A stretch of 64,000 nucleotides of DNA from sequence record PQ471460.1; one strand, given 5' to 3'. Made by a program: the position numbers and the translations under genes. Below the pieces are notes generated by a model. The model had not been told where the DNA came from, searched no databases, and worked only from the letters and a program-made list of their open reading frames with translations. The stretch is from Escherichia phage vB_EcoM_JE01. Positions 34,310 through 46,806 of the stretch are shown here, piece after piece; the stretch's first letter is position 1, and every line of letters begins with the position of its first letter.

Positions 34310-34867
34310 GTGAGTGAGTCGAAGAGAATCAATATGAAACGATTAGTACTAGAAGTTAGTTCACTTTTTGGTGAATTGGCTATAGAAAAAGTAAATAATA
34401 TGTATCGTTTGACGCAAGAAGACGATATGCTATATTTTACGCCTAGCGAAATTATTCATTTAACCCAAATTGAAAAACCTTACACTGATAAAATTGTAAG
34501 CATCAATGATGAGCATAAAATTCATTTTTATTCTTTATGCCCAGGATTTAACATTGAAAGCGAGTCAATATGCTTATCAATTAATAATTGGGATAATTTT
34601 ATAACTAAAATTAAATATTTTTATTATTCTAATGAAAGAAAACATAGTTTAAAATGGCTTAAAAATTGCAATGCTATTATTACTAACGCTTGTGATCGGA
34701 ATGATGAAACTGTTTTAAATGTATCAAAATGTTATGAAGAGGGAGATGTCTTAACTATTCGTCAAATTGATGATTTTCGATCACATATTGTCACATTTAC
34801 CAAAGACGAAGCTATTGCGCTAAAGACTTATCTTGATTCTGTCATTCCAACTATGATTTCAAAGTGA
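34310..34867 (+). CDS. hypothetical protein; paralog of next ORF
   Basis: GTG start with AAAGGAG SD (alternative ATG 34334); shares GFNIE motif and C-terminal KDEAIALKTYLDSVIPTM with the next ORF. Confidence 0.5.
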   Translation: MSESKRINMKRLVLEVSSLFGELAIEKVNNMYRLTQEDDMLYFTPSEIIHLTQIEKPYTDKIVSINDEHKIHFYSLCPGFNIESESICLSINNWDNFITKIKYFYYSNERKHSLKWLKNCNAIITNACDRNDETVLNVSKCYEEGDVLTIRQIDDFRSHIVTFTKDEAIALKTYLDSVIPTMISK

Positions 34868-34873
34868 GGAAAT

Positions 34874-35395
34874 ATGTTTATTTCAAGTGAAAGTGGTTTA
34901 ATTCGTGTTGAATTTAAAAATGACATCTTCCTTATTCAAGGAGATGATATTATTAAAATGAGTTATGATGAAATCAAGAAAATTTGTCATGCTCTTGAAA
35001 GTCATGGAAAGGAAAATGCTACTATTAATATAGGTGATTTATGGGTGACACTTTATGAAGTATCCGAAGGATTTAATATTGAAGATGAAAATAACATTTT
35101 AGCTATTGATAAAAGAAGTGATTTGTTTGATGTATTAAAAGTTTATGAACAATCAAACGGTGGAAGAAAAGCCGTATTGATTTATCAAAAACCGCATTCA
35201 TGTGGAACTGCTTCAATCATTTCAAATATTGAAGATGAAACTGATACCTATATGTGTGTTTTGAAAGCTGGTGGTGACCGTCATCCGGATTTTATTTCTA
35301 TTCGTCAAAACAATGGAGAAATTTCATTATCAAAATCAGAAGCTGAAGCTATGATTAAGTATTTAACAACTGTTACACCTTCAATGAAAGGATAA
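34874..35395 (+). CDS. hypothetical protein; paralog of previous ORF
   Basis: 173 aa; GFNIEDE motif and C-terminal SKSEAEAMIKYLTTVTPSM. Confidence 0.5.
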   Translation: MFISSESGLIRVEFKNDIFLIQGDDIIKMSYDEIKKICHALESHGKENATINIGDLWVTLYEVSEGFNIEDENNILAIDKRSDLFDVLKVYEQSNGGRKAVLIYQKPHSCGTASIISNIEDETDTYMCVLKAGGDRHPDFISIRQNNGEISLSKSEAEAMIKYLTTVTPSMKG

Positions 35396-35397
35396 TT

Positions 35398-35859
35398 ATG
35401 ATTATTAATGAAAACTCTTGGCATTATAAATTATTCAAAATGTTTAATGATGAATGGAAACGGCCTAAGACACTATGCGCGTATTTTTGGTCTATTGTTA
35501 TTCCTACATTTTTCGTTTCTTTTTTCGGATGTACTATACTCGCAGGTCTAACTATCATCTGTGCAGAAATCATACAGAAATGGCTTATTTTTGGTAGTTT
35601 ATGGACTCTTATTCCATCAGCATTTGTACTTGCCATTTTGCTTGTTTTACTTATTATTGGTTCATTTGTTATTCCTGCACAACTGCATGAAAAATATAAA
35701 GATTATAAATGGAAAAAGGATTATGCTTTACATGTAGAAAATATTGATAGGGCGTATAAAGGTTTACCTCCTATTCAACCCAAGAAGTCTATTATCGTCG
35801 AATTTTTAAAAGCTCGTAAAGCTAAAGTATGTCCTGTTATTGAATATAAGGCTGAATGA
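35398..35859 (+). CDS. hypothetical multi-pass membrane protein
   Basis: 153 aa; three hydrophobic helices. Confidence 0.5.
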   Translation: MIINENSWHYKLFKMFNDEWKRPKTLCAYFWSIVIPTFFVSFFGCTILAGLTIICAEIIQKWLIFGSLWTLIPSAFVLAILLVLLIIGSFVIPAQLHEKYKDYKWKKDYALHVENIDRAYKGLPPIQPKKSIIVEFLKARKAKVCPVIEYKAE

Positions 35860-37438: not shown

Positions 37439-38407
37439 ATGAAAACTGTAACTATCAATAAGGGTATCTACTTCGGTAAAGAAATCTCTGGAACTTTTGA
37501 GCTCTTAGGCGAATGGTTCCCAGATAATGCTCCGGTAGATGCACAGGGAGATGGTAAAGTTTTTGTTGAAATTGACGGTAAACGTCGCGGTGTTTGGGTT
37601 TACAAATCAGATATTTCATATGATGGTGTAAAAGTTGAAGAAGTTAAAGAATCATATGAAGATATGAAAACCCGCATTAATAAAAGATTTAATGTTATGG
37701 GAATGATGACGAATGGTATTATTAATGGAAATATTCGTTCATTGATTATCTCTGGCGCAGCAGGTATTGGTAAAACGTATTCTTTAGATAAAGCTTTAAA
37801 TAAAGCAAATGATAATGGATACATTGAATATAAAAGCATTAACGGTAAAATCTCTGGTATTGGTCTTTATGAGCAGCTTTGGAATAATCGTGAAGAGAAT
37901 TCTGTCCTTTTGATTGATGATGTGGATGTTTTCTCTGATATGGACATTCTTAATCTTCTAAAAGCTGCTCTGGACACTGGAGAGACCCGTAAAGTCTGCT
38001 GGAGTACTGCGTCTTCTTACTTAGAAGAAAAAGGCATTGAGCGTGAGTTTGAATTTAAAGGAACGATTGTTTTTATCACAAACGTTGATATTGACCGCGA
38101 ATTAGACCGTGGTACTAAACTTGCTCCACACCTACAAGCATTAGTGTCCCGCTCAGTTTATTTAGATTTGGGTGTTCATACTAATGAAGAAATTATGGTC
38201 AGGGTTGAAGATGTTATTCTTTCAACTGACATGATGCAAAAGCGCGGTCTTTCTGATGAAGAAACTTATAAAGCATTATCATGGATGAAAGTTAATGTTA
38301 ATCGTTTACGCAATGTTTCACTGCGTACTGCTCTTTATCTTGCTGACTTTATTATGACCGACAAAAACGGTTGGGAAGAAATTGCTGAAACGGTATTATT
38401 AAAATGA
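37439..38407 (+). CDS. AAA+/P-loop ATPase
   Basis: Walker A GAAGIGKT and Walker B VLLIDDVD; ATG 37439 after GGAGAA SD (track start 37427 is TTG). Confidence 0.65.
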   Translation: MKTVTINKGIYFGKEISGTFELLGEWFPDNAPVDAQGDGKVFVEIDGKRRGVWVYKSDISYDGVKVEEVKESYEDMKTRINKRFNVMGMMTNGIINGNIRSLIISGAAGIGKTYSLDKALNKANDNGYIEYKSINGKISGIGLYEQLWNNREENSVLLIDDVDVFSDMDILNLLKAALDTGETRKVCWSTASSYLEEKGIEREFEFKGTIVFITNVDIDRELDRGTKLAPHLQALVSRSVYLDLGVHTNEEIMVRVEDVILSTDMMQKRGLSDEETYKALSWMKVNVNRLRNVSLRTALYLADFIMTDKNGWEEIAETVLLK

Positions 38408-39123
38408 AAAAATATTTTACTATCTATAAAACTGAAATATTAAATTTAAAGACAGGTATTAAGAAATACTATTATGGTCGACATATAACTAATAACATCA
38501 ATGATTCGTATGTTGGTAGTGGAAATTATATAGAACGTGTAAAAGTGTCAAATGACCACATATTATCAAAAACGGTTTTAGAAGTTTTTGATAATTATGA
38601 TAAAATGGTACAAGCTGAAATATTATATATCATGGCAGGTAAATTGAAATATGGAAAAAACTGTGTTAACCTGTCATACGGGGGTGAAGGAGGAAAGGTT
38701 GCAGATGAAACTAGGATAAAATGCAAAAAGCATTCTATAAATTTATGGAAAAATCCTAATCATATACAGCATATGAAGAAAAAGATGAAAGAGGTTACAT
38801 CCACGCCGGAAGCTAAATTAAACACTTCAATAAAAACTTCGCAACGATATAAGGACCCAGTTTTTGTTAGAAAAGTTAGTAATATTATTAAAAAGAAACT
38901 AAGCAATCCTGCAGTAAAAGAAAAGCATATTAATGGAATTAAAGCTGCAAAGCGTTCTCATTTAACTATATGGCAGTATGAAGATGAATTATTCGAGCTT
39001 TGGAAAGAAACTAAATATGGATGGAGAAAATTTACAAAGGAAGCTATAAAACACGGATATCCAAATGAACCGTATCGTAGTATGGTATCAACTTTTCAGA
39101 AAAGACATTTAGAAGAATCCTAA
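38404..39123 (+). CDS. GIY-YIG homing endonuclease (Seg-like)
   Basis: 239 aa; ATGA overlap with ATPase stop; N-terminal GIY-YIG module KKYYYGRHIT...YVGSGNYIERV. Confidence 0.7.
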   Translation: MKKYFTIYKTEILNLKTGIKKYYYGRHITNNINDSYVGSGNYIERVKVSNDHILSKTVLEVFDNYDKMVQAEILYIMAGKLKYGKNCVNLSYGGEGGKVADETRIKCKKHSINLWKNPNHIQHMKKKMKEVTSTPEAKLNTSIKTSQRYKDPVFVRKVSNIIKKKLSNPAVKEKHINGIKAAKRSHLTIWQYEDELFELWKETKYGWRKFTKEAIKHGYPNEPYRSMVSTFQKRHLEES

Positions 39124-40097: not shown

Positions 40098-40152
40098 CCG
40101 CTTTATACCAAGGATGGTATAATGGTTCTAAGCCCTTTTAATTGAGATTATT

Positions 40153-40567: not shown

Positions 40568-41458
40568 ATGTCAGTAGTAATTAATAATGTCAATGCAGTA
40601 ATTAAATCTTTAGTTAATAAAAAAATGATGAATGAATGGACTGTACTTCGTCGTGGAGAGCCAGATAAATTTTTTCATAGATTTAACCCAACTTTGGATT
40701 TGAATGTTATTGATAAAGATGTTCATGCCGAAATTTTAGATAAGTTTAAAGTTGATATTGGATTTGGATTAGAAAAACATTTACAGCGAACAAATGGATC
40801 TGGAATGAGTTTATCTAATCGCATTATGAAAGCCCTTAATAAAATTGGAGCATTGTCTCGTATTAACGCGAGTGAAATCCTTCGTAATTATAATAAAGGA
40901 TATGACCTTTATGGTCGACTAATGCCGAAGTTATCATTTGACCAAATGATAGCAGATTTGTGGGAAAATCAACGACGATTATTAGCATTAGGCGCTCGAT
41001 TAGCTAAAGGTCTAGATAAACAAATGATTTTTAAGACCAATAATACAGAAGACCTTAAATGCTTTAAATTTAGTATTCGCGGAGATGATTATTATATCAG
41101 AGCTCGCTCTACAGATTATGTTAATATGGGGCATCATCTCTGTTTAGCTTTTGAAGTTTTAAAAGAAGCTGGAACATTAGAATATTCATCTGGTGCAAAA
41201 TGCCCTATCGGTTCAAGTTGTATTTTAATTTATCGCCCGAATGAATCCAGTTCAACTACATTGCCTATGAAACCTGCGCCAGTTCGTAGTAACGAAAAAC
41301 ATTCTGAACAAATTGATTATTTTAATAAACAGATTGAAGAGCTGAATATTTCTATTCAACAATATGACGATGAAATTTTCAGACTATCTGGATTGAGTAG
41401 TAAAGCTAAATCTGAGCGTGAAAAGTTAATTAAAATCGTTGATTTACTTAAATCTTAA
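40568..41458 (+). CDS. hypothetical protein, member 1 of four-gene tandem paralog array (C-terminal coiled coil)
   Basis: Track start 40532; ATG 40568 after GAGG SD; C-terminus ...IEELNISIQQYDDEIFRLSGLSSKAKSEREKLIKIVDLLKS. Confidence 0.5.
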   Translation: MSVVINNVNAVIKSLVNKKMMNEWTVLRRGEPDKFFHRFNPTLDLNVIDKDVHAEILDKFKVDIGFGLEKHLQRTNGSGMSLSNRIMKALNKIGALSRINASEILRNYNKGYDLYGRLMPKLSFDQMIADLWENQRRLLALGARLAKGLDKQMIFKTNNTEDLKCFKFSIRGDDYYIRARSTDYVNMGHHLCLAFEVLKEAGTLEYSSGAKCPIGSSCILIYRPNESSSTTLPMKPAPVRSNEKHSEQIDYFNKQIEELNISIQQYDDEIFRLSGLSSKAKSEREKLIKIVDLLKS

Positions 41459-41466
41459 GGAATACC

Positions 41467-42495
41467 ATGAAAACTCGTTCTCAAATTGAAGATATGGTTC
41501 GTAATGCCAGTTATACTCGTGATGTTATGACATTTTTGTGTGAAAATAATTTAGACCCTGATAAAGTTAATCGTGTTATTCATCACTTTAAGTATACGAA
41601 TAGCAGTGAATGGGTGCGTAATTTTAGTAAAGCGGGATATATTACACAAATGACTGCTCGTGAGCAGCTCACCGATTTCTGTAAAACTATTGATTATAAA
41701 AATCCTTTATTTGTTCAAGGCGTTGGTCAAAGTAAGGTCGATTTATCATCTGGATTTTTCAATCCAAATCATTATCGTATTGAATGGAGATTTATTGCTC
41801 TGTTCCGTAGACAATTAAAGCAAATTTTATCAACTGCGAGTCGATTAAAAGGTTCTGATATTAACTTAAAGAACTTGAAATTTGATGGTTATACTCTTCA
41901 GATGGAAGTAAGACCATTAAAAGAAAATAACAGAACTGCACGAATTAGCTTTAAACCTAATACAAAAAATTCTCTTTCAATTTGCGAATGCCTTAAATCA
42001 CAGTTGACAGAAGCATTTAAGTATATGGATGTTGTTGCCGCTGTTCAGTCTAAGATTTTACCTCGTTTTGAGCGAAATTGGGAACATACAACAACGTATG
42101 AACTTGATATGATCGTTTCATTTAAATACGATTTTTTGAGAAAGGACGAAGTCACGCAAGAGAAAAAGCAGGAAGTGCAAGATAACTTAAATTTAAATTT
42201 ATCCAATTACTCATCAAACGATCCTAAATTTTGGATGTATAGCTCAAGCAATATAGATGCATGTAAACTTAATAAAGTGAGTTTTCTTCCTACTGAAAAT
42301 TCAAATTTTAAACCTGTAGAAAAATGGCACGCTGACGCGATTGAGAAGTCTCTTAAGGCAGTAGATGATGAACTCGTTAAAGCGACCAATGAAGTGCTAG
42401 AAGCTGAAAAGGTGTTAGAACAAGCTCAGTCAAGGGTTCAAAATCTGACAAAGCAACGTTCTAAACTGAACAATGCACTAAATGCACTGAACTAG
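41467..42495 (+). CDS. hypothetical protein, member 2 of tandem paralog array
   Basis: 342 aa; begins MKTR; C-terminal coiled coil ...EVLEAEKVLEQAQSRVQNLTKQRSKLNNALNALN. Confidence 0.55.
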   Translation: MKTRSQIEDMVRNASYTRDVMTFLCENNLDPDKVNRVIHHFKYTNSSEWVRNFSKAGYITQMTAREQLTDFCKTIDYKNPLFVQGVGQSKVDLSSGFFNPNHYRIEWRFIALFRRQLKQILSTASRLKGSDINLKNLKFDGYTLQMEVRPLKENNRTARISFKPNTKNSLSICECLKSQLTEAFKYMDVVAAVQSKILPRFERNWEHTTTYELDMIVSFKYDFLRKDEVTQEKKQEVQDNLNLNLSNYSSNDPKFWMYSSSNIDACKLNKVSFLPTENSNFKPVEKWHADAIEKSLKAVDDELVKATNEVLEAEKVLEQAQSRVQNLTKQRSKLNNALNALN

Positions 42496-42525
42496 TTTAC
42501 TTTGCCACAAGGATGTGGTATAATG
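42495..42525 (+). promoter_or_regulatory. T4-type early promoter inside the paralog array
   Basis: GTTTAC 42495-42500; TGTGGTATAAT 42515-42525. Confidence 0.6.
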
Positions 42526-42552
42526 TTCTTACTTTCTACTGAGGAGATTAAT

Positions 42553-43554
42553 ATGACTCGTAACGAATATATCAAATCATTCAATAGTGTTATTGATGAT
42601 AAAGCTATACCGATGTTTGGTCAAAATAGCGTTATTTCTATTATCAATCAATGGCTCAATAGTGTTGATGCAAGTATTGTTTCTTCTGCTAAATTTATTC
42701 ATGAAATTCGTAAAATTTCTAGCCGTGTAGATAAAGATGTTATCAAGAAAACCTTTAAAGAGTCTCGTCTTCTTTCATATTTGGTTAATCGAGATATTCT
42801 TGGTAATTTTGGGAAAGAAATTAAACGAACCAAAGATGTAGTAGGATATAATTGGTTCGGTGATGTTAATTCTTATCATCTTAATAATAAAGAAGACCCT
42901 GAGAATATTTTTACTCGTCGTTGGATTAGTAATTTCAGACTTTTCAAAAAGCAAATTCTAAAATCAGCTTCTAAATTATGCTATGGCGATTATCGTCAAA
43001 TTCATCCTTGGGCTTCTGATATGATTATCATAAAAGAATATGAGCTTGATAAAAATAAAGCAGCTATTTTTGTGAATTATGAATTTTTTACACCAGACGC
43101 TAACCAAAAGAATATTAATAAATTTTTCTCAATTGCTAGCACTATAACTCGTCAATTAGAAACCGCATTACTTTGTATGGAAACAGTAGAAAATATTCAT
43201 ACTTATCCTTTTAAGAATGTGTGCGGTTGGGAAGGATACAAAATTGTAGTTAGTCTTCGTGAAGTAAAGTGTGCTTATTCACTAACTGATAAAGAAATTT
43301 ACCAACAAAAATGCGAAGAAATTGTGAATACTCCTAAAGAAGAAACTACCCTTGAGGAACTAATGGATAATCTTGATGATTCACCTGAATCGGTAGAAAT
43401 TCGTCCAGAAGTTATTGCATTAGAAAAAGCTTATAAAGAAGCTCTAGAAATTTCTAATAAAGCGCAGAAAGAATATGAGCAGGCTAAAAGGATTTGGGAA
43501 GAATCTGTTAATCGCCTGGATCGTCTTGAACAAGCTTTACAGTTAATTAAGTAA
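42553..43554 (+). CDS. hypothetical protein, member 3 of tandem paralog array
   Basis: ATG 42553 after GAGGAG SD (track start 42502 lies in the promoter); C-terminus ...KEYEQAKRIWEESVNRLDRLEQALQLIK. Confidence 0.55.
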   Translation: MTRNEYIKSFNSVIDDKAIPMFGQNSVISIINQWLNSVDASIVSSAKFIHEIRKISSRVDKDVIKKTFKESRLLSYLVNRDILGNFGKEIKRTKDVVGYNWFGDVNSYHLNNKEDPENIFTRRWISNFRLFKKQILKSASKLCYGDYRQIHPWASDMIIIKEYELDKNKAAIFVNYEFFTPDANQKNINKFFSIASTITRQLETALLCMETVENIHTYPFKNVCGWEGYKIVVSLREVKCAYSLTDKEIYQQKCEEIVNTPKEETTLEELMDNLDDSPESVEIRPEVIALEKAYKEALEISNKAQKEYEQAKRIWEESVNRLDRLEQALQLIK

Positions 43555-43606
43555 TTTAAAGCCAAGGATGGCTCGGAGTATAAATCATTAACTAAGTGAG
43601 AAGAAC

Positions 43607-44536
43607 ATGAAAACTCGTAAACATTATATTGATTATTTTGACAGTCTTATTACTAAACATCGTAATTATCAGATCGGGCACAGAGCAGTAATCAATAATA
43701 TTCTTCGTGATTTCCTTCAATATGTTGGCCAGGAAAATCATATCTGTAAAGATACTCAAAACGCTTATTCTCATTCGTTAGGCAATTTGCTTCAATGGTT
43801 TAAACGTTCTCGTCTGTTATCTTCTACTGTAGCTAGTGATAACATTAAAAACTTTATGAAGCCGAGCTTCATTAAATCTGCGACATCTATAACCGATTTG
43901 GTTGAATTTACTATTGTTAACGATGTTAAAAAGACCCATTTGGCTGATTGGTTATCTACCATTCCTGAAACTAAATTTGCTGATAAATTCGCTTGTCAAT
44001 TCAATGACCAAGTGAATATGCTTTTTAAGCATGCTCGTAAACTATTTACTGCAGGTGATGACCGTACAAATACAGTTCATGTTAAGGACTGGGTTATTGC
44101 TGATGAAGTAACACACAAGCCAGGTGGTTCATCAGTATTAATTAATATCCAGGTTCCTTATTATTACTCACGTAATCTCGGCACCATGACAGCTAGAGAA
44201 ATTAATAAGCACAACAAAACTATTCGTTCGTTGTCTTATAAACTCTGCACGATGGTGGAGATGATGGACGTAGTTGAAATGTATGACGAAACCGAAGATA
44301 ATGGTTCAATGCTGTACAGTTCACGCATTCTAATTAAACTGAAGAACCCTAATACATATAAGCCAGTTGTAAAAGAACCTAAAGTAGAAAAGATTGATAA
44401 CCTGAGTGAAGAACGCGAATATCTTAATACACGTTTAATTGAAGTTGAAAAACAGATTGAAGAGCATACTAAAGTTCTTAAGGCTTTAACCGCCAAAGCA
44501 AATGGTTTACGTAATGCTATTGAGGTATTGAAATGA
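43607..44536 (+). CDS. hypothetical protein, member 4 of tandem paralog array
   Basis: 309 aa; begins MKTR; C-terminus ...[24 protein letters not shown]. Confidence 0.55.
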   Translation: MKTRKHYIDYFDSLITKHRNYQIGHRAVINNILRDFLQYVGQENHICKDTQNAYSHSLGNLLQWFKRSRLLSSTVASDNIKNFMKPSFIKSATSITDLVEFTIVNDVKKTHLADWLSTIPETKFADKFACQFNDQVNMLFKHARKLFTAGDDRTNTVHVKDWVIADEVTHKPGGSSVLINIQVPYYYSRNLGTMTAREINKHNKTIRSLSYKLCTMVEMMDVVEMYDETEDNGSMLYSSRILIKLKNPNTYKPVVKEPKVEKIDNLSEEREYLNTRLIEVEKQIEEHTKVLKALTAKANGLRNAIEVLK

Positions 44537-46060: not shown

Positions 46061-46183
46061 AACCTTGGTGGGCGGCTAGATGGGAAACAGTAGAGCCAGA
46101 GCCGGAAGAACCGGTTTACACTGATGAAGAAACAGTATATAATGAACCTACAATAAATGACATAATTGATATGGAGATGGGAC

Positions 46184-46630
46184 ATGATTACAGTAGATAA
46201 GTGGTTTAGAATTAATCGTGCTGATAAAGGGCTATGTAATTATTGGCCAGAACTTAGTGCAGGTACTGTCTTTAAAGTTCGTGAACTCGCAAAAGAATGC
46301 GAAGATGATATAGAACCTGATACTGGAATTATTGAAATTGAACTTTCTGATGGAAAGATTATTAACATCTACGATAAGCCAATTACGTATTGGTGCTTGT
46401 GGAATACTGAATCAGTAGAAAATGGCGAAATTGAAGAAGTTGTAGAACGAGTTGATCAAGCTATTCATAAACCTAAAGCCGCTTTTCAAGGTGAACGCAT
46501 TTCATATGCATTAGCTAAATTAGCTGCGCAAGAAAACAACGATGGTTATGAAGGAAATTTGATGCAAGCTGCGGCAGAATATATTGAATGGCTTGAAACT
46601 CAAATTTCTTTTTCTGACCGAGCATTTTAA
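46184..46630 (+). CDS. hypothetical protein
   Basis: ATG 46184 after GGAGATGGG SD (track ATG 46166 also possible). Confidence 0.45.
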   Translation: MITVDKWFRINRADKGLCNYWPELSAGTVFKVRELAKECEDDIEPDTGIIEIELSDGKIINIYDKPITYWCLWNTESVENGEIEEVVERVDQAIHKPKAAFQGERISYALAKLAAQENNDGYEGNLMQAAAEYIEWLETQISFSDRAF

Positions 46631-46806
46631 TGAAAACTGAATTGATTTATACTGAAAAGTTAAATGGTGGTAAGGTTTGGAAACTTTTTATTAAAGGAAA
46701 TTCTACAGACCCTAATATGACCACTTGTGTAGGAACTTATTCTCGTCCTACTAAAAAGATGATTCGACAATATAAGCGATTGCATCGAATGTTTTACAAT
46801 ACTTGA
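46630..46806 (+). CDS. hypothetical small protein (58 aa), not in ORF track
   Basis: TAATG overlap with upstream stop; MKTELIYTEKLNGGKVWKLFIKGNSTDPNMTTCVGTYSRPTKK... Confidence 0.4.
   Translation: MKTELIYTEKLNGGKVWKLFIKGNSTDPNMTTCVGTYSRPTKKMIRQYKRLHRMFYNT

Follow-up and report, generated by a model that had tools for sequence, protein, structure and literature searches.

Gene content of the array

The window examined here is a stretch of 64,000 nucleotides (64 kb) from Escherichia phage vB_EcoM_JE01 (PQ471460.1), in which four genes form a tandem array at positions 40568 to 44536. An earlier note, made from the letters of this DNA, had described four consecutive same-strand open reading frames (ORFs) with a shared layout, and the array was found as described. 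T4 proteins from gene 49 to vs were compared with the window by tblastn, with the T4 annotation as reference, and a 1:1 syntenic map was obtained from gene 49 to tk. On this map the array corresponds to the nrdC.6-nrdC.5-nrdC.4-nrdC.3 block of Tequatrovirus, an already known locus:

40568..41458, + strand: nrdC.6 orthologue (member 1), 296 amino acids (aa); phrog_2257; homologues carry PF26899
41467..42495, + strand: nrdC.5 orthologue (member 2), 342 aa; Pfam DUF7235 (PF23882)
42553..43554, + strand: nrdC.4 orthologue (member 3), 333 aa; phrog_1435; homologues carry PF26897
43607..44536, + strand: nrdC.3 orthologue (member 4), 309 aa; phrog_1435

The nrdC.5 orthologue matched PF23882 over residues 1-342 (model positions 1-307) with a score of 406 bits (cut-off 30), and lies between nrdC.6 and nrdC.4 as in T4. 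The nrdC.6 orthologue matched phrog_2257 at an expect value (E) of 7e-151, and PF26899 was present on all nrdC.6 homologues. A single PHROG, phrog_1435, was common to nrdC.4 (E=5e-167) and nrdC.3 (E=4e-116). PF26897 was precomputed for all nrdC.4 homologues as well as for P0056, a database protein whose C-terminal part derives from nrdC.3.

Two starts were considered for member 3: an ATG at 42553 with a GAGGAG Shine-Dalgarno sequence (333 aa) and the mechanical TTG at 42502 (350 aa). The ATG, with GAGGAG before it, is the most likely start; the upstream in-frame starts overlap a promoter-like -10 box. Members 2 and 4 both begin MKTR, as had been noted before, and member 3 begins MTR; these starts aligned across all three proteins.

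The region of ~4.3 kb around the array matched 656 phage records; nearly all belong to T4-type phages of Escherichia, Shigella or Yersinia, and phage Killian gave the best match (97%). In T4, 21 ORFs are annotated between nrdC and tk, including all four array genes. The earlier note had counted about 20 ORFs here against about 12 in T4 and had regarded the array as expanded relative to T4. Both statements were wrong: the T4 count removes the premise of an expansion, and T4 itself carries the nrdC.3-nrdC.6 block.

Common ancestry of the four proteins

Pairwise comparison linked only part of the array. BLASTP aligned nrdC.4 with nrdC.3 (E=5e-7, 26% over 227 aa) and gave no significant match between nrdC.5 and nrdC.4 or between nrdC.6 and nrdC.5. 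Comparison of profiles with hhalign reached further: nrdC.4 and nrdC.3 matched at 98% (E=4e-14), nrdC.5 matched a merged nrdC.4 and nrdC.3 profile at 95% (E=1.9e-8), and nrdC.6 matched an independent profile of the others at 96% (E=1.6e-9). The independent profile was built from nrdC.5, nrdC.4, nrdC.3, PM2 gp092 and Merlin gp91.

Because coiled coils can produce spurious similarity, the C-terminal helices were cut off and the profile comparisons were repeated alongside ten column-shuffled controls. Without the coiled coil, the N-terminal part of nrdC.6 still matched the rest at 91% (E=1.1e-6), that of nrdC.5 matched those of nrdC.4 and nrdC.3 (E=2.8e-7), and those of nrdC.4 and nrdC.3 matched each other (E=1.6e-14); the shuffled controls (n=10) gave E=0.1-0.65. 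PM2 gp092 bridged nrdC.6 (E=1e-4, with LALGAR in common) and nrdC.5 (E=9e-5). The protein of nrdC.8, which has a helical C-terminus too, was unrelated to the family (E at least 0.02).

A joint alignment revealed colinear motif blocks in every family, which were also seen in the bridging sequences:

N-terminal start: M(K)TR..YI
N-terminal helical region: [FL]xK[SA][GR]x[LI]S..A.[ED]xLxN[FY]
End of the long helix, consensus ..[AG][SA][RK]L..G.D: LALGARLAKGLD in nrdC.6, LSTASRLKGSD in nrdC.5, LKSASKLCYGD in nrdC.4 and FKHARKLFTAGDD in nrdC.3
Helix: L..L..A[FL]..M..V
C-terminal end: R..L..A[LIV]..L[KN]

From the profile scores without the coiled coil, the shuffled controls and the colinear blocks we conclude that all four genes are, to judge from their sequences, very old and highly diverged paralogues from one ancestor, with nrdC.6 somewhat less certain than the others. 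The paralogy proposed in the earlier note, for which a pairwise profile check had been suggested, is thus borne out by profile-profile statistics with controls.

Predicted structure and the coiled-coil tail

AlphaFold2 models cover nrdC.5 and nrdC.6. The nrdC.6 model (predicted local distance difference test score, pLDDT, 77; predicted template modelling score, pTM, 0.65) showed a helical N-domain followed by a beta-beta-alpha-beta-beta unit and, after a linker, a helical hairpin at the C-terminus. The nrdC.5 model was poor (pLDDT 51) because the alignment was shallow. Both models run through the same elements in the same order: first a long helix, then two strands, a helix and two more strands, and finally, after a disordered linker, the C-terminal helix. 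Given the poor nrdC.5 model, the proposed fold identity rests on element order and profiles rather than on superposition. Both models matched the Mineola protein A0A2Z4QAR2.

A heptad-like helix was present at the C-terminus of each protein, again in agreement with the earlier note:

41294..41455, + strand: C-terminal heptad helix of nrdC.6, aa 243-295, one of the best-conserved parts of the nrdC.6 family
42313..42492, + strand: C-terminal heptad helix of nrdC.5, aa 283-342
43402..43551, + strand: C-terminal heptad helix of nrdC.4, last 50 aa
44384..44533, + strand: C-terminal heptad helix of nrdC.3, last 50 aa

Over the last 50-60 residues of all four proteins, hydrophobic residues took up a fraction of 0.75-0.88 of the a/d positions, and this was equalled in 0-2 of 2000 shuffles. 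Both AlphaFold2 models show these tails as long helices, predicted at aa 243-295 in nrdC.6 and aa 283-341 in nrdC.5.

The four proteins showed no enzymatic or defence-related match in Pfam (beyond the DUFs), NCBIfam or PADLOC; fragment matches to BrxC, PgrA and XerD in these searches were far under the cut-offs and were rejected as coiled-coil noise. No sequence relative or solved homologue was found in the PDB. Among 39 diverse members, positions conserved in at least 60% were almost all occupied by hydrophobic or small residues, and no conserved residues of catalytic type were seen. Family, fold and conservation searches agree with the earlier statement that the N-terminal domains hold no recognisable catalytic motif. 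With regard to the NAD+-restoring type of counter-defence enzyme (NARP; NAD+, nicotinamide adenine dinucleotide), no enzyme domain or catalytic motif was recognised in the four proteins. The lack of an enzyme match and the hydrophobic or small conserved positions argue for proteins that most likely act by binding other proteins, with a fold that lacks a solved relative.

The low-confidence nrdC.5 model (41467-42495) also gave many weak Foldseek matches to phage tail-completion and tail-terminator proteins (E ~1e-3, template modelling score, TM, 0.3-0.45 on the target), which are probably noise. Foldseek matches of this model at TM ~0.2, including tail-completion proteins, were rejected as unreliable given the poor model. 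DSR2, a related defence, senses a tail tube protein.

Promoter-hairpin cassettes

The 64 kb contain exactly three copies of the motif CAAGGATG-N(0-12)-TATAA, all on the + strand, where 0.06 were expected. Each copy lies upstream of an array module, within a promoter-hairpin cassette:

40100..40124, + strand: cassette A, ACCAAGGATGGT hairpin and extended -10 TGGTATAAT, motif copy at 40109-40122; upstream of nrdC.7, nrdC.6 and nrdC.5
42496..42524, + strand: cassette B, TTTACT-N17-TATAAT with TG and a stem-loop CCACA-AGGA-TGTGG in the spacer, motif copy at 42508-42523; upstream of nrdC.4
43553..43585, + strand: cassette C, TTTAAA, AGCCA-AGGA-TGGCT hairpin and TATAAAT, motif copy at 43563-43583; upstream of nrdC.3

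All three sites are kept in T4, where cassette A lies at the same place and cassette B is identical. In RB69 the motif lies upstream of nrdC.5 and of nrdC.3, and in JS98 upstream of nrdC.6.

Promoter-early stem-loop (PeSL) elements have been described in T4-like phages (Arbiol 2010, PMC2839356; Comeau 2014, PMC4122927), and those of PST and T4 follow the consensus TTTACW-N17-TAYWAT (Comeau 2014, PMC4122927). Cassette B has this consensus and a stem-loop and lies in a hyperplastic region; it is a predicted promoter. Cassettes A and C fit in part: cassette A has the extended -10 only, with no good -35 hexamer at 17 bp, and cassette C is spaced as TTTAAA-N18-TATAAA.

The earlier note had placed an early promoter and a late-like TATAAAT box inside the array and had suggested that members could be expressed at different times. 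Both sites are present, and TATAAAT (43579-43585) is the -10 box of cassette C; its homologue in RB69 is of early type and reads TTTACA-N17-TATAAT. The box of cassette C, TATAAATC, agrees at 7/8 positions with the T4 late promoter TATAAATA, which is used by gp55 RNA polymerase, so late use is possible but not indicated. As the box is homologous to an early-type -10 box, different timing of the members is not established.

Divergence, alleles and decay

Identities and the ratio of nonsynonymous to synonymous substitution rates (dN/dS) were determined for the window genes against T4. The nrdC.6 orthologue was 97.7% identical over aa 1-259, with a dN/dS of 0.05. Identity was 94.7% for nrdC.5 (dN/dS 0.17), 94.0% for nrdC.4 (dN/dS 0.22) and 62.9% for nrdC.3 (dN/dS 0.33, synonymous rate dS 0.87). 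In nrdC.8, nrdC.9, nrdC.10, nrdC.1, nrdC, 49 and tk, dN/dS was 0-0.10, so that nrdC.3, nrdC.4 and nrdC.5 lie above their neighbours. The family had been called fast-diverging; this description suits nrdC.3, applies mildly to nrdC.4 and nrdC.5, and fails for nrdC.6.

The window nrdC.3 is a divergent allele with ~75% identity to RB69. Compared with T4, its first ~60 and last ~40 residues were 95-100% identical and its middle 25-55%. Three nrdC.3 allele classes were found among several hundred phage records, at identities of at least 90%, ~75% and ~62%. The pattern looks like allele replacement within a conserved frame. The adjoining gene nrdC.2 is divergent too (82-85% identity).

Decay of individual members was also seen. 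Comparison with window positions 41344-41458 revealed a +1 frameshift after residue 259 in T4 nrdC.6 (NC_000866 8067-8894), which leaves a protein of 275 aa without the conserved C-terminal helix; the helix is present in the 296-aa window protein and in all other homologues. In IMG/VR contig L002 (4895-5948), a frameshift breaks nrdC.4 into two ORFs. The database protein P0056 is an in-frame nrdC.5::nrdC.3 fusion without nrdC.4.

Distribution among T4-like phages

Comparison of the nrdC.6 model with BFVD returned uncharacterised proteins of 304-335 aa from distant T4-like phages (E=8e-7 to 7e-4), namely IME523, PM2, Acj61, Acj9, Mineola, fHe-Yen9-01 and Merlin. PM2 gp092 and Merlin gp91 are single copies in the nrdC-nrdC.10 interval; searches for related loci with these two proteins gave near-identical loci only. 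RB69 has three members (nrdC.6, nrdC.5 and nrdC.3), as does JS98 (nrdC.6, orf86 and nrdC.4). When 1.84 billion cluster representatives were searched with a superfamily profile, only 30 clusters were recovered; these take in all four families plus bridging ones such as P0240, P0242 and P0247. The family is therefore small, confined to T4-like phages as far as identifiable matches show, and expanded in Tequatrovirus.

Neighbouring genes

T4 proteins mapped by tblastn to these positions on either side of the array:

31791: tk
32640: rI
35859: nrdC.11
37439: nrdC.10
39207: nrdC.9
39570: nrdC.8
40153: nrdC.7
44533: nrdC.2
44837: nrdC.1
45081: nrdC
46849: gene 49

Several differences from T4 were observed nearby. 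A 239-aa ORF at 38404-39123 (+), between nrdC.10 and nrdC.9, matched the PHROG 'homing endonuclease' (phrog_314, E=1e-30); T4 has no gene at that place, and the ORF had no Pfam match at E<=0.01. T4 mobD is missing from 34310-35859 (+), where mobD.1 is found instead at 34310-34867. After it come, in this order, a 173-aa ORF whose C-terminus is similar (…YLDSVIPTMISK vs …YLTTVTPSMKG) and which may be a tandem paralogue, and an ORF at 35398-35859 predicted to encode a membrane protein. In the region of pin, the gene for the Lon protease inhibitor (46166-46806, +), the window matches residues 1-146 of T4 Pin; the last 18 residues match 46750-46803 within a separate 58-aa ORF (phrog_3272), and the 3' end of pin is therefore rearranged relative to T4. 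T4 49.3 had no match in the window.

Counter-defence activity of T4 nrdC.5

Dsr1 is a widespread defence protein of the SIR2 type that depletes NAD+. A T4 clone with compensatory deletions was unable to plate on E. coli ECOR17 (Srikant, Guegler & Laub, eLife 2022; PMC9391042). Deletion of dsr1 from the ECOR17 host restored plating of this clone, plasmid-borne dsr1 shielded MG1655 from it, and expression of nrdC.5 restored its plating on Dsr1-carrying E. coli (PMC9391042). What is known of the activity of NrdC.5 concerns a single pair, the T4 protein and ECOR17 Dsr1 (PMC9391042). We found no function assigned to any nrdC.3-nrdC.6 gene in the literature beyond that paper, and nothing on DUF7235, PF26897 or PF26899. 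The earlier guess of an anti-defence role therefore holds for the T4 orthologue of member 2 (PMC9391042), and for members 1, 3 and 4 we infer it.

Interpretation of the array

We consider it probable, with moderate confidence, that the array is an old paralogue family in which nrdC.5 counters Dsr1, the other members serve counter-defence or host range, and the genes are arranged in cassette modules. The proteins would share one plan: N-terminal helices, a long helix and a beta-beta-alpha-beta-beta unit, from which a disordered linker leads to the C-terminal heptad helix. Member 2 would let the window phage infect Dsr1 hosts as T4 nrdC.5 does, probably by binding and blocking Dsr1 or its trigger directly, early in infection. 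The other three paralogues would act in host range or counter-defence on targets of their own; specificity would be set by the variable middle, and the conserved C-terminal coiled coil would mediate oligomerisation or docking. The repeated promoter/hairpin cassette divides the array into three modules; it probably drives early transcription and probably also offers a recombination point for module exchange. Such recombination would account for the copy number of 1, 3 or 4 between genera and for the frameshifted and fused members.

Several results weigh against this explanation. Selection on nrdC.6 is strongly purifying, unlike that on a typical arms-race gene, and dN/dS is below 1 in all four genes. 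Against single families nrdC.6 scored weakly in hhalign (E=0.005-0.06), becoming significant only against a merged profile, and the nrdC.5 model is poor. Dsr1 was still called "poorly characterized" in a 2026 paper. The experimental basis is limited to T4 nrdC.5, and a counter-defence role of nrdC.3, nrdC.4 and nrdC.6 is inferred.

The constraint on nrdC.6 would be accommodated by an accessory role in host takeover outside defence, in which the proteins act on host transcription, nucleoid or metabolism and the anti-Dsr1 effect is indirect, for example through removal of the activating signal. The family copy kept in distant T4-like genera and the location of the genes among early nucleotide-metabolism genes are consistent with such a role, and direct binding of NrdC.5 to Dsr1 is so far a proposal only. 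We nevertheless regard it as unlikely: laboratory growth does not require the genes, natural and evolved phages have lost them, no identifiable family member lies outside T4-like phages among the 30 clusters recovered from 1.84 billion representatives, and the sole known phenotype is defence-specific.

Plasmid-borne nrdC.5 alone restores infection on Dsr1 cells (PMC9391042), which speaks against the four proteins being subunits of one assembly, joined through their similar coiled coils and acting together in, for example, Dsr1 neutralisation or one host-takeover function. So do the copy number of 1 to 4 among T4-like phages, the T4 nrdC.6 protein without its C-terminal helix, and the disruption or deletion of nrdC.4 in natural contigs. 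A hetero-oligomer is in our judgement decidedly improbable, even though all four C-termini end in the same R..L..A[LIV]..L[KN] block with clear heptad periodicity and the conserved ends of nrdC.3, kept between alleles while the middle is replaced, would fit ends that touch a conserved partner.

Convergence of four unrelated ORFans, each ending in a low-complexity coiled coil, could draw on the non-significant BLASTP pairs and on the division of the four into three families by Pfam and PHROGs, but it is largely refuted, and very hard to credit, since profile scores stay significant without the coiled coil while shuffled controls do not, colinear motif blocks occur in all families plus the bridging sequences, and secondary-structure elements follow one order in the nrdC.5 and nrdC.6 models.

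NrdC.5 is the only reported T4 antagonist of Dsr1, whose trigger and regulation remain poorly understood. The three diverged paralogues beside nrdC.5, together with the single-copy relatives in PM2 and Merlin, form a short list of counter-defence candidates, and the conserved and variable regions could be used to map binding specificity. The array is also a natural example of phage accessory repertoires that expand, swap alleles and decay. A broader and more doubtful possibility, which we put forward tentatively, is a modular inhibitor family of undescribed fold, with a conserved scaffold of N-terminal helices and coiled coil and a swappable centre that sets the immune-protein target; it would form a T4-type repertoire reshuffled through the cassettes. 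If this were true, Dsr1 would be the target of nrdC.5, and the other members would counter further systems, which might include other SIR2/NADase sensors. The view of T4 biology is unchanged unless the paralogues prove to be counter-defence genes.

Comparison with known systems

The likeness to DSAD1, the anti-DSR2 protein of SPbeta-like phages, is functional only. DSAD1 is reported as a small, non-enzymatic protein of the phage; it binds a NADase defence of the SIR2 type and thereby blocks it (PMC10973363, PMC10981675). It belongs to another phage group and targets DSR2 rather than Dsr1, and no sequence or fold relation between DSAD1 and NrdC.5 was detected. Binding is the mode of action of DSAD1 and a proposed one for NrdC.5.

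As for the PeSL elements, cassette B fits the consensus and carries a stem-loop. Variable genes of the hyperplastic region flank each of the three cassettes. The stem-loop differs: AGNA-loop-TCNT in PST and T4, compared with a CCA-AGGA-TGG core here. Cassettes A and C differ further by their weak -35 boxes.

Member 2 shares its position with T4 NrdC.5, is ~94% identical and matches PF23882 over its full length; the protein of the window phage differs at ~6% of residues from the T4 protein, from which the anti-Dsr1 activity is known. Members 4, 3 and 1 are positional orthologues of the hypothetical proteins NrdC.3, NrdC.4 and NrdC.6. The window nrdC.3 is another allele, ~62% identical to that of T4, and the window nrdC.6 is full length (296 aa) in contrast to the frameshifted reference copy of 275 aa. 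Databases hold NrdC.3/NrdC.4, NrdC.6 and DUF7235 apart, and the present analysis links them to one another. What is new here is this superfamily link to a validated anti-Dsr1 gene, the cassette structure and a testable hypothesis.

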